Positions 24,462 to 33,330 of a DNA stretch of 64,000 nucleotides are shown here, piece after piece; positions within the stretch are counted from its first letter, which is position 1, and every line of letters starts with the position of its first letter. The position numbers were made by a program, and so were the translations under genes. The stretch is taken from assembly GCF_055900595.2 (NCBI RefSeq), contig NZ_CM148325.1; one strand, 5' to 3'. Below the pieces are notes generated by a model. The model had not been told where the DNA came from. It searched no databases and saw nothing but the letters and a program-made list of their open reading frames with translations.

Positions 24462-26126
24462 TCAGGCTACCTTTTCGACAGAAACGTCGACATCAGGGCG
24501 GTTGAGTGTCATCACGGACGCCAGTTTATTCAGCGTATTACCCAGAGTTTGCGGAATGGCGATGGCGGCAACAAAGCGATCCGGGCGCATCACCACTAGC
24601 GAAGCATTATGTTGTGCGAACCAGCTACGCATGCGACCTTGCGTATCGCCCACGCGCAGCACGCCGTCGTAGTTATCCTGCGCGGTATGAATTTGCACAT
24701 CCGGCACCACCTGAATGAAGCGAGTACCCAGCGCGCGCCATTGCTGGATTTGCTCATCGCTCATCCCCCACAGTGGATTGCATCCCCAGCCAATTACCGC
24801 GAAGTTCGCGCCGATCGCGTTATCGAGCAACGTCACGTCGCCGTTTTCCAGCGTAACTTTCGGCTGAATAAACATCTTGCCGACCGGAGAGTGTTTCGCT
24901 TCGCCTTCACGCACCAGCGCACCGGCGTAATATTGCGGCATCGGCTTGAAGCGCATTTCGAGAAAGTAGCGTTTTACTGGCGGCAGATAATTCAGCAGCC
25001 AGGAAACACCGTCACGTAACGTACCCTGCCAGCGTTTCGGCGGAGCCAGTACGTTGCCCGCCGTCACCGACAGATCAATCATCGCTTTGGCGTGATCGCG
25101 ACGTTCTTGTTGATAGGTATCGAGCAGCGCATCGCGAGCTTTCCCCTGGATAACCAACGCCAGTTTCCAGGCGAGGTTAAAGGCGTCGCGCATACCACTG
25201 TTATAGCCCTGCCCCTGCCACACCGGCATGATATGTGCGGCATCGCCCGCCAGCAGTACGCGGTCAATACGAAAACGTTGTGCCAGTCGCGCGTTGTGGG
25301 TGTAGACACGCTGGCGAATCAACTCGACGTTGTCCGGATTAGGCAGCACTTTGCTTAACAGCTTGCGCATATTTTGCGGCTCGCGGAGCTGTTCTTCGGT
25401 TTCGCCCGGCATCACCATAAATTCAAAGCGACGTACCGCATGAGGCAGAGCCGCAGAAACATACGGGCGCACCGGATCGCAACACAAATAGATATGCGGC
25501 GTACTTAACGGATCGTTGGCGATATCCACCACAATCCACTGATTTGGTGCGGTTTTACCTTCAAACGGCACATTCAGGGTGCGCCGGACAAAACTTGCTC
25601 CACCGTCACAGGCTACCAGCCACTGGGCTTTGACCGTTTCCCGCTGCCCTTCTGCCGTTTTCAGATACAAGGTCACTTCGTCATCTTGCTGGCTGAAGGC
25701 CTCCAGCTCGCGGGAAAACAGGCAGCGCACATTCGGAAACCGCGACAACCCTTCCAGCATCACCGCATCGACCTGCGGCTGAATAAAGGCGTTACGACGC
25801 GGCCAGCCAAATTCATCGGTCATTGGCTGAATATCAGCAAAACAGCGGCCTTTTGGGGTAAGAAAACGCATCGCATGCCACGGCGTAGTGTGCGGCAGAA
25901 CATTATCGACAAGGTCAACCGACTGCATGGTGCGCAGCGCCTCGTCATCAATTCCAATCGCGCGTGGATAGTCGATCAACTTATCGAGTTTCTCCACCAC
26001 CAGCACGTCAATGCCCATCTGGCCGAGATAGTTCGCCATCATCAGCCCGACCGGACCGGCACCAGCGATCGCCACCTGAACGCAATGGTTAATAGCAGGC
26101 TGGATGTCAGGGTGTTGTATTGCCAT
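24462..26126 (-). CDS. mhpA: 3-(3-hydroxyphenyl)propionate hydroxylase (FAD monooxygenase)
   Basis: 554 aa with N-terminal GAGPVG FAD-binding fold. Confidence 0.92.
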
Positions 26127-26267
26127 TTCAGTACCTCACGACTCGGAAAAAATGCCGTTGCGCGCACAGTTCAACGCAACTTATTTTGTTAAAAACATGT
26201 AAATGATTTTTTATTGTGCGCTCAGTATAGGAAGGGTGTTTTCGGCTACAATCAAAACATGCCTGAG

Positions 26268-26284
26268 TGTGCACCAGGTGCACA
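26268..26284. promoter_or_regulatory. 17-bp perfect palindrome TGTGCACC-A-GGTGCACA in the mhpR-mhpA divergent region, candidate MhpR (IclR-type) operator
   Basis: Perfect 8-bp arms around a central base, 33 bp upstream of the mhpR ATG. Confidence 0.55.
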
Positions 26285-26316
26285 ACGTTGTTTTAAATAT
26301 AGAAATGTCAATTAAT

Positions 26317-27150
26317 ATGCAGAAAGATGAGCAGACGGAATACAAAACCGTGCGCGGCTTAACCCGCGGTCTAATGTTATTAAATATGTTAAATAAACTC
26401 GATGGCGGTGCCAGCGTCGGGCTGCTGGCGGAGCTCAGCGGCCTGCATCGCACCACTGTGCGGCGACTGCTGGAAACGCTGCAGGAAGAGGGATATGTCC
26501 GGCGCAGTACCTCCGATGACAGTTTTCGTCTGACCATCAAAGTGCGGCAATTAAGCGAAGGATTTCGTGACGAACAATGGATTTCTGCACTGGCAGCCCC
26601 GCTGCTGGGCGATCTGTTGCGCGAAGTGGTATGGCCGACAGATGTGTCCACGCTGGATGTTGATGCAATGGTGGTACGCGAAACCACCCACCGTTTCAGC
26701 CGTTTATCTTTTCACCGGGCAATGGTCGGACGGCGTTTACCGCTCCTGAAAACCGCCTCGGGACTGACCTGGCTGGCCTTTTGCCCGGAACAAGAACGCA
26801 AGGAGTTAATCGAAATGTTAGCCGCCCGCCCCGGTGATGACTATCAACTGGCACGGGAACCGTTAAAGCTGGAAGCCATTCTGGCGCGCGCACGCAAAGA
26901 GGGTTACGGACAGAACTACCGTGGCTGGGATCAGGAAGAGAAGATCGCCTCCATTGCCGTGCCCCTACGCAGTGAACAACGGGTGATTGGCTGTCTGAAT
27001 CTGGTGTATATGGCAAGCGCAATGACCATCGAACAGGCAGCGGAAAAGCATCTTCCGGCGCTACAACGGGTAGCAAAACAGATCGAAGAAGGGGTTGAAT
27101 CGCAGGCTATTCTGGTGGCCGGACGGCGAAGCGGCGTGCATTTACGCTAG
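26317..27150 (+). CDS. mhpR: IclR-family transcriptional activator of the mhp operon
   Basis: ORF 26203-27150; start set at MQKDEQTEYKTVRGLTRGL... giving 277 aa. Confidence 0.88.
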   Translation: MQKDEQTEYKTVRGLTRGLMLLNMLNKLDGGASVGLLAELSGLHRTTVRRLLETLQEEGYVRRSTSDDSFRLTIKVRQLSEGFRDEQWISALAAPLLGDLLREVVWPTDVSTLDVDAMVVRETTHRFSRLSFHRAMVGRRLPLLKTASGLTWLAFCPEQERKELIEMLAARPGDDYQLAREPLKLEAILARARKEGYGQNYRGWDQEEKIASIAVPLRSEQRVIGCLNLVYMASAMTIEQAAEKHLPALQRVAKQIEEGVESQAILVAGRRSGVHLR

Positions 27151-27252: not shown

Positions 27253-28041
27253 GTGGAGCAAATCATGAAAATTACTCAAATTCGTAATGCCACCCAAATT
27301 ATCCAATACGCTGGCAAAACATTTCTTATTGACCCGTTACTCGCGCCTAAAGGAAGTTATCCGGGTTTTGCCGGAACGGCACGCGCAGAAATCCGCAATC
27401 CAACGGTAGAATTACCGTGCGATTTAACAACGTTACTCAACGTTGACGCCCTAATAGTGACCCATTTGCATGAAGATCATTGGGACGAAACAGCCTCCCG
27501 CGTCGTCCCCAAAGATAAACAGATTTATGTGCAAAATGAGCAAGATGCTGAATCACTGCATAAACAAGGATTTACGCATCTTACCGTACTTGCCGACGAG
27601 ACTAAATTTGGCGATATTACTCTGCATAAAACGACAGGGCAGCACGGCTCCGATCGCACCTATGCAGACCCGGCTATGGCGAAGCGTTTAGGCGCAGCCT
27701 GCGGCGTTGTTTTCCAGCACCCGACAGAGAAAACGCTCTATCTGGCTGGCGATACCCTCTGGCGTGATGACGTCGAGGCTACAATGCTAACTTTCCAACC
27801 AGAAGTGGTGGTGTTGAATGCCGGATTTGCGCATGTTCTGGGGCATGGCGCGATAATTATGGGAGCTGAAGATATTCTCAAAACACATTTTACCCTGCCA
27901 GAAGCGCAAATTGTCGCGACACATATGGAGGCCGTAAACCACTGTTTGCTGACGCGTGATGCGCTCAAGGAATACGCCAGAGATAATCAAATTATCGAAT
28001 TTGTGAACGTACCAGAAGATGGTGAAACGTTGACATTCTAA
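27253..28041 (+). CDS. MBL-fold metallo-hydrolase
   Basis: 262 aa with the HxHxDH signature THLHEDH; start could be ATG 27265 (MKITQ). Confidence 0.75.
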   Translation: MEQIMKITQIRNATQIIQYAGKTFLIDPLLAPKGSYPGFAGTARAEIRNPTVELPCDLTTLLNVDALIVTHLHEDHWDETASRVVPKDKQIYVQNEQDAESLHKQGFTHLTVLADETKFGDITLHKTTGQHGSDRTYADPAMAKRLGAACGVVFQHPTEKTLYLAGDTLWRDDVEATMLTFQPEVVVLNAGFAHVLGHGAIIMGAEDILKTHFTLPEAQIVATHMEAVNHCLLTRDALKEYARDNQIIEFVNVPEDGETLTF

Positions 28042-28060
28042 TTCGGAGATAAAGAGTGTT

Positions 28061-29014
28061 ATGCGCCCGCTAACTGTTGCCATTATCGCCGTTGCCGGTT
28101 TTAGTCCTTTTCACCTTTCCGTACCGTTTATCGTGTTTAGCGAAAAAATGGCGGAGAAAAAACGCTTTCATGTAATTATCTGCGCTGAAAAGCCGGGAAA
28201 TGTGGACTCTGCCGATGGGTTTTCCGTAACCGCCACCCATGACTATACGGCAGTCATCCAGGCGGATATTGTGATAATTCCTTACTGGGGAACAATTACA
28301 CAAAAACCGCCACAAAAACTGCTGGAAGCCTTAACGATCGCACGAGATAACGGGGCACAGATTGTCGGGCTTTGCCTGGGCACGTTTGTGCTCGGCTATG
28401 CAGGTTTACTGAACAATAAGCGTGCTGCCACGCACTGGGAGTTCGAGCGTGAATTTCAGGCACGTTTTCCACAAACACATCTGGATATTAACGCGTTGTA
28501 TGTAGACGATGATGGCATTATTACCTCTGCCGGTACTGCCGCGGCGCTGGATTGCTGTTTGTATATTGTTCGGCAACATTTTGGCAGCGACTATGCTAAC
28601 CATATTGCCCGACGGATGGTCGTACCGCCATATCGCACCGGCGGTCAGGCGCAGTTTATAGAGCAACCGGTGCCGAAAAATACCCATGATGAACGCATTA
28701 ACCTCCTGCTGGATTACCTGCGGCAAAACATTGCGCAACAGCATGATCTCGACTCGCTGGCTCAGCGAGTAATGATGAGTCGCCGCACACTAACCCGTCA
28801 TTTTATGAAAGCGACCGGTTCGAGTATCGCCGAATGGCTCATCACTGAACGCTTACGCCGTAGCCAGGAACTGTTGGGATCCAGTCAGTTGCCCGTTGAG
28901 CGGATAGCGGCTGAGGTGGGTTTTCTCTCACCTGTGACCTGGCGTCAGCATTTTAAATCTCACTTCGGCGTCAGCCCCGCAGAATGGCGCAAAACCTTTC
29001 GTGGTATGGCATGA
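28061..29014 (+). CDS. GlxA-type transcriptional regulator (DJ-1/PfpI-like N-domain plus AraC-family HTH)
   Basis: 317 aa; C-terminal AraC-type HTH region (SRRTLTRHFMKATGSSIAEWLITERL...); 3' end overlaps the lacI promoter. Confidence 0.75.
   Translation: MRPLTVAIIAVAGFSPFHLSVPFIVFSEKMAEKKRFHVIICAEKPGNVDSADGFSVTATHDYTAVIQADIVIIPYWGTITQKPPQKLLEALTIARDNGAQIVGLCLGTFVLGYAGLLNNKRAATHWEFEREFQARFPQTHLDINALYVDDDGIITSAGTAAALDCCLYIVRQHFGSDYANHIARRMVVPPYRTGGQAQFIEQPVPKNTHDERINLLLDYLRQNIAQQHDLDSLAQRVMMSRRTLTRHFMKATGSSIAEWLITERLRRSQELLGSSQLPVERIAAEVGFLSPVTWRQHFKSHFGVSPAEWRKTFRGMA

Positions 29015-30133: not shown

Positions 30134-33330
<3,197 letters not shown>

Follow-up and report, generated by a model that had tools for sequence, protein, structure and literature searches.

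The locus examined here raises the question of what purpose is served by a perfect inverted repeat placed between two genes that are read in opposite directions. It lies in a 64,000-nucleotide stretch of DNA, which was analysed as a whole and is referred to below as the window. In this window the genes mhpA and mhpR are separated by a divergent spacer of 190 bp (26127-26316). The original prediction had placed a 17-bp perfect palindrome within 26258-26290, 33 bp upstream of mhpR and about 140 bp from mhpA, and had proposed that it is an IclR-type operator for MhpR. As judged from comparison of sequences, the palindrome is very probably the operator of MhpR, the IclR-family activator encoded next door. 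The features on which the analysis draws are as follows.

24462-26126, minus strand: mhpA, first gene of the divergent mhpABCDFE operon and regulated target (annotation, Pfam FAD_binding_3).
26224-26229, minus strand: predicted -10 box of the mhpA promoter Pa, TATACT, at a distance of 47-52 bp from the centre of the operator (AGTATA invariant among 18 Enterobacterales; function predicted).
26246-26251, minus strand: predicted -35 box of Pa, TTGTAG, with a 16-bp spacer to the -10 box (CTACAAT is kept in Enterobacterales; function predicted).
26247-26252, plus strand: TACAAT, a possible -10 box of mhpR, overlapping the predicted -35 box of Pa.
26268-26284, no strand: very probable MhpR operator, a 17-bp perfect palindrome (sequence, K-12 orthologue, and PMC8222616, Table 1).
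26269-26274, no strand: left core half-site GTGCAC, self-complementary (17-mer positions 2-7, kept in 75-78 of 78 sequences).
26278-26283, no strand: right core half-site GTGCAC (17-mer positions 11-16, kept in 75-78 of 78 sequences).
26288-26295, no strand: conserved block TTGTTTTA, directly on the mhpR side of the operator (alignment).
26306-26321, no strand: candidate weak CRP site TGTCA-N6-ATGCA, read by eye, with 6 of 10 core positions.
26317-27150, plus strand: mhpR, IclR-family activator of 277 aa (annotation, Pfam, K-12 identity, NF007341).

The palindrome, TGTGCACC-A-GGTGCACA, can be read directly from the sequence at 26268-26284. The repeat finder returned arms at 26268-26275 and 26277-26284, each of 8 nt, 100% complementary and separated by 1 nt, while in the pattern search TGTGCACCAGGTGCACA at 26268-26284 was the single match in the 64-kb window at up to 3 mismatches. 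Sequence reading, repeat finder, and pattern search agree that the proposed palindrome is real, and the range originally given for it brackets this exact span. Its surroundings in the window read cctgagTGTGCACCAGGTGCACAacgttg, and in the direction of mhpA the palindrome itself reads TGTGCACCTGGTGCACA. Within it, the two GTGCAC half-sites are spaced 9 bp from start to start. The last base is located 33 bp upstream of the A of the mhpR ATG (26317) and the gap to the start of mhpA (26126, minus strand) is 141 bp, so that the two distances proposed beforehand are correct by annotation. The gene starts were those of the RefSeq annotation of strain Z0117EC0005, the spacer of which is 100% identical to that of the window. 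A 315-aa open reading frame from 26203 was rejected as an over-extension of mhpR; it would wrongly put the palindrome within a gene.

Palindrome symmetry alone is without significance in the window. Perfect palindromes with 8-nt arms and a spacer of 0-3 nt were found 4 times in the 64 kb, against 5.3 ± 2.7 expected from 100 dinucleotide-preserving shuffles of the window, and the subset with a 1-nt spacer was represented by 1 case, against 1.24 expected from the same shuffles. Inside the 190-bp spacer between mhpA and mhpR, arithmetic from the shuffle counts gives an expectation of about 0.016 palindromes with 8-nt arms. Because perfect 8-N-8 palindromes are not rare in 64 kb, the case for an operator rests on position and conservation. 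The appeal to symmetry in the original prediction needs two minor amendments: the palindrome is perfect here, but the K-12 reference site is imperfect, and symmetry taken by itself is not significant.

The strongest indication of function is obtained from Escherichia coli K-12. Pairwise alignment of the K-12 and window spacers places the orthologous site of MG1655 at GGTGCACCTGGTGCACA, read in the mhpA direction. In Table 1 of PMC8222616, GGTGCACCTGGTGCACA is given as the MhpR operator and credited to Torres et al. 2003 (Torres, Porras, Garcia and Diaz, J Biol Chem 278:27575), and the K-12 site is letter for letter the motif tabulated there. The window operator shares 16 of 17 bases with the published sequence. 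The difference is confined to the outermost base on the mhpR side, which is A at window position 26284 and C in K-12; because of this single base the 17-mer of the window is a perfect palindrome, whereas that of K-12 is imperfect. The published MhpR site, in the form of the motif from PMC8222616, therefore coincides with the palindrome and is not mapped elsewhere, and the proposal of an IclR-type operator for MhpR is supported, as the K-12 operator aligns with it base for base except for one outermost substitution. The element is already known: it is the MhpR operator of Pa in another E. coli lineage. Likeness to the operator of the K-12 mhp Pa promoter also extends to the orthologous position in the mhpR-mhpA spacer, to conserved flanking promoter elements in common, and to the adjoining regulator. 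The one-base difference from K-12 probably leaves the mechanism unchanged.

The regulator itself gives a consistent picture. The mhpR product carries the HTH_IclR and IclR_C domains of Pfam, reaches 346 bits with NCBIfam NF007341 (cutoff 269), and is 98% identical to K-12 MhpR, with residues 5-64, helix-turn-helix included, being identical. Its nearest solved relatives are all IclR-family regulators. The earlier description of MhpR as an IclR-type regulator adjoining the site is borne out by these domains and by the identity to the K-12 protein. By annotation of both Z0117EC0005 and K-12, the operator sits between mhpR and the divergent mhpABCDFE operon. An inverted repeat of the size of IclR operators (about 15-19 bp), with 8-nt arms and a 1-nt spacer, is found near the regulator gene. 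The motif lengths of other IclR-family operators are listed in PMC8222616. As in the aromatic-catabolism operators of PcaU, PobR, PcaR, HmgR, and TphR described there, a 15-19 bp inverted repeat lies between the regulator and a divergent catabolic operon, and as in the IclR-family regulators of the same source the protein combines an N-terminal winged helix-turn-helix with a C-terminal effector domain. The mhp operator differs from the other operators of the family in that its half-site GTGCAC is self-complementary, by which the element is both an inverted repeat and a 9-bp direct repeat. It also differs from the operators of PcaU and PobR: no extra external half-site was recognised at mhp, and the conserved TTGTTTTA is unlike the half-site.

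Conservation was followed through 80 loci, one genome per species, that were found with MhpR at 55-98% protein identity and that cover Escherichia, Citrobacter, Kluyvera, Pluralibacter, Edaphovirga, Shimwellia, Pseudomonas, Azotobacter, Azomonas, Marinobacterium, Zobellella, Nitrincola, Oceanospirillum, Xanthobacter, Plasticicumulans, and Vibrio. When up to 1 mismatch is allowed, the core GTGCAC-N3-GTGCAC is present within 450 bp upstream of the mhpR homologue in 78 of the 80 species loci. Exact cores number 73 in 447 kb of loci, while each shuffled set yields 0-1 (about 0.1 on average). It can be observed that the 12 core positions are kept in 75-78 of the 78 sequences (96-100%) and that the flanks vary. 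Position 1 of the 17-mer is T in 52 of 78 and position 17 is A in 58 of 78. Symmetry of the inner pair 8/10 is kept in 51 of the 78 sequences (T:A in 37, C:G in 14), and the bases of the outermost pair, 1/17, are complementary in no more than 43 of 78. The core is thus conserved from Escherichia to Pseudomonas, Azotobacter, Marinobacterium, and a Xanthobacter. Upstream of the MhpR homologues of Vibrio cincinnatiensis (L023) and V. furnissii (L032), no GTGCAC-N3-GTGCAC was found, and no mhpA is located nearby. These two MhpR homologues, at 69-74% identity, are the only ones of the 80 without the core; the upstream genes of L023 resemble trpB and trpA. The two homologues may be orphaned regulators or proteins of changed function.

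Independent support comes from rearranged clusters, in which the motif follows the regulated promoters and not mhpR as such. In most loci, as found by tblastn, the gene on the divergent side of the operator is mhpA, and in four sampled loci without mhpA it is mhpB (3-carboxyethylcatechol 2,3-dioxygenase) or mhpD (2-keto-4-pentenoate hydratase). A second exact core was detected just downstream of mhpR in L042 (2671-2685), L050 (3301-3315), L056 (3323-3337), and L081 (3343-3357), which belong to Marinobacterium and one Pseudomonas. These second copies have a layout similar to that of the primary site, the operator being followed by TTG and then by a -10-like box, which reads TATACA in L042 and is weaker in the others. 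They are directed toward the gene that comes next, which in L081 encodes an alpha/beta hydrolase and in the other three loci is mhpB. A further copy in L070 (3047-3061), with 1 mismatch, lies inside the mhpR homologue and looks like chance. In rearranged mhp clusters, the motif could serve to locate promoters under MhpR control.

The relation of the operator to the promoter was analysed by anchoring the loci on the operator centre without gaps. In this arrangement (T/C)ATACT appears 47-52 bp and TTGT about 25-30 bp from the operator centre, always on the side of the catabolic gene. The layout is seen in Enterobacterales, Pseudomonas, Azotobacter, and Marinobacterium, and in the large majority of non-enteric loci. 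In 18 aligned Enterobacterales spacers, AGTATA (26224-26229) and CTACAAT (26246-26252) are invariant blocks. On the other side of the operator, toward mhpR, TTGTTTT is invariant in Enterobacterales, and Pseudomonas and others have TTG(T/A)TTTA at that offset. TGTTA-N6-TGTNAA (26187-26202), which falls within the predicted mhpA leader, is also conserved in Enterobacterales. If TATACT is taken as the -10 box, mhpA transcription, on the minus strand, is predicted to start near 26217-26218, and the centre of the operator (26276) would lie at about -58/-59. In the work of Torres et al. 2003, the MhpR footprint is reportedly centred at -58 and a CRP site at -95.5. The predicted position of the operator centre appears to agree with the former value. 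In the consensus promoter scan, no sigma-70 promoter was found in the spacer, an outcome that would be expected of an activator-dependent promoter but that lends it no positive support. The exact promoter positions given for the window strain are to be read as predictions.

The candidate CRP site overlaps the mhpR ATG, and its centre is displaced by 37.5 bp from that of the operator toward mhpR; its position would fit the -95.5 mentioned above. A search for the CRP consensus TGTGA-N6-TCACA at up to 3 mismatches gave 196 matches in the window and none in 26127-26316, and the palindrome as a CRP site was accordingly rejected. Elsewhere in the window, the same pattern scan picked out the CRP site of the lac promoter at 30149-30164, which reads TGTGAGTCAGCTCACT, and also matched part of the lac operator O1 (GGATAACAATTTCACA) at 30228-30243. 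The lac CRP site is one base off the K-12 sequence, TGTGAGTTAGCTCACT. According to PMC12132413, CRP is annotated at -38 to -59 of mhpRp2; inspection by eye gave no convincing match to this site in the window spacer. The supplements of PMC5772556 and PMC12132413 contain no mhpR.

The roles of the proteins can be drawn by analogy from the literature on K-12, from which MhpR binding and the parts played by inducer and CRP are taken. There, Pa is activated by MhpR in dependence on 3HPP, and CRP binding requires MhpR (PMC8753852); the K-12 operator is bound by MhpR with binding enhanced by 3HPP (PMC11237407). In the window strain, MhpR would bind both GTGCAC half-sites symmetrically. Pa, the presumed sigma-70 promoter of mhpABCDFE on the minus strand, would start about 58-59 bp downstream of the operator centre. 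Binding would be strengthened by 3-hydroxyphenylpropionate (and phenylpropionate), and with the inducer CRP could bind the weak site located further upstream. MhpR and CRP would then jointly activate transcription of the catabolic operon, with expression of mhpR probably constitutive with respect to the inducer.

The other explanations of the palindrome are weak. The most plausible among them concerns mhpR itself, as operators common to two divergent promoters are frequent in the IclR family. The palindrome might mainly or additionally be autoregulatory, with MhpR bound at about +10 to +26 of the putative mhpR start repressing or modulating mhpR. The putative -10 box TACAAT (26247-26252) and the mhpR ATG flank the operator, which is located 16 bp downstream of the CTACAAT block invariant in Enterobacterales and 33 bp upstream of the ATG. 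This geometry is a guess, the position of the mhpR start being predicted, and the corresponding block in the P. fluorescens group reads GACAAC, which is no -10 hexamer yet fits the divergent -35 box TTGT. Furthermore, in agreement with Torres 2003, an mhpR promoter-lux fusion was expressed constitutively whether or not 3HPP or PP was present (PMC11237407), and an autoregulatory role is accordingly judged unlikely. Recognition by a different regulator, NtrC, which would tie mhp expression to nitrogen status, draws on a genomic-SELEX peak (88%) in the K-12 mhpR/mhpA spacer and on the NtrC box consensus TGCACCAnnnTGGTGCA (both PMC8743547). The centre of the palindrome, TGCACC-A-GGTGCA, does hold both arms of the box TGCACCAnnnTGGTGCA, TGCACC and GGTGCA, but only 1 bp separates them, 4 bp less than the 5 bp of the box, and a search of the spacer that allowed up to 3 mismatches gave no match to the 17-bp NtrC box. 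The SELEX peak is low in positional resolution, in vitro only, and was not followed up at mhp in PMC8743547. Across taxa and gene arrangements, moreover, the motif tracks mhp genes and not nitrogen genes. Binding by NtrC as the explanation of the palindrome is therefore highly unlikely, and the NtrC signal is possibly in-vitro cross-recognition.

A role at the level of RNA is more improbable again. In such a case the inverted repeat would fold, within the mhpR leader or an antisense transcript, into a hairpin that acts as an intrinsic terminator, as an attenuator, or as a stabilising stem. A loose terminator-like scan does flag 26268-26284 on the plus strand, with 7 pairs and a 3-nt loop followed by ACGTTGTTTT. 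Nevertheless, the z-scores of the folding energy (0.06 for the plus strand and -0.71 for the minus strand) show no advantage over shuffled sequence, the T run is not adjacent to the stem but begins 6 nt past it, and a terminator just upstream of an expressed regulator gene makes little sense. Over the 78 species, 12 stem positions are fixed in sequence with no compensatory changes, and outermost pair 1/17 is complementary in only the 43 of 78 mentioned above. A fixed stem sequence without compensatory change indicates protein recognition, not RNA structure. An intrinsic terminator, consisting of a GC-rich hairpin and an immediate T run, was rejected on the z-scores, the offset of the T run, and the pattern of conservation, and a hairpin of any of these kinds is extremely improbable. 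The least credible reading is that the palindrome is a product of chance, or just two ApaLI-type GTGCAC hexamers without function. The frequency of palindromes in the window indeed matches the shuffles (4 against 5.3 ± 2.7). The core, however, is kept in 78 of 80 species in the same place relative to mhpR, where about 0.1 exact cores would be expected, and the K-12 orthologue is identical to the published MhpR operator. Chance is excluded by this conservation across species together with the identity to the published operator.

With the palindrome taken as the MhpR operator, its variation within E. coli can be described. Alleles were counted by means of a 30-mer starting at the palindrome and carrying the A of the window at 17-mer position 17, and the K-12 version with C was counted likewise. 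The window allele was found in at least 3070 of 5426 complete E. coli genomes and the K-12 allele in at least 1503 of the 5426; the spacer is present in 4896 E. coli genomes. The perfect palindrome is thus the commoner allele of E. coli, and the K-12 site is a minority, less symmetric allele. The window allele also agrees with the cross-species consensus, which has T at position 1 and A at position 17. The imperfect K-12 allele, on which all biochemistry was done, is probably the derived one. It is unlikely, although a small chance should be allowed for, that the A/C base alters the affinity of MhpR, so that lineages differ in basal 3HPP catabolism or in its inducibility, or that NtrC also touches the site. 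If true, a contact with NtrC would couple the breakdown of aromatic acids to nitrogen status. A link between MhpR and gut colonisation by EHEC has been described (PMC6550539), and natural variants of the operator are of possible interest for work on that subject.

The element is nothing new in kind: it is an activator operator in a divergent promoter region, and it was correctly recognised from sequence. The additions made here are minor and comprise the allele frequencies, the delimitation of the GTGCAC-N3-GTGCAC core, the rigid spacing of operator and promoter across Gammaproteobacteria, and the second operators.

Two further observations concern the strain and the neighbourhood of mhpR. The region 26100-26340 of the window is at least 99% identical to only 10 of 4900 E. 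coli records and about 96% identical to most, K-12 included. From these spacer identities, the window belongs to an E. coli lineage that has been sampled less, and it comes nearest to the dog isolate Z0117EC0005. Between mhpR and lacI, at 27253-29014, the window carries two genes that are absent from K-12, an MBL-fold metallo-hydrolase (27253-28041) and a GlxA/AraC-type regulator with a DJ-1/PfpI domain (28061-29014). The latter is annotated in an O157-type genome as ovrA, an OI-19-encoded virulence regulator. The insert parts mhpR from lacI, which in K-12 are listed as a single operon in PMC8743547, and it was found in full in 435 of 5426 complete E. coli genomes.
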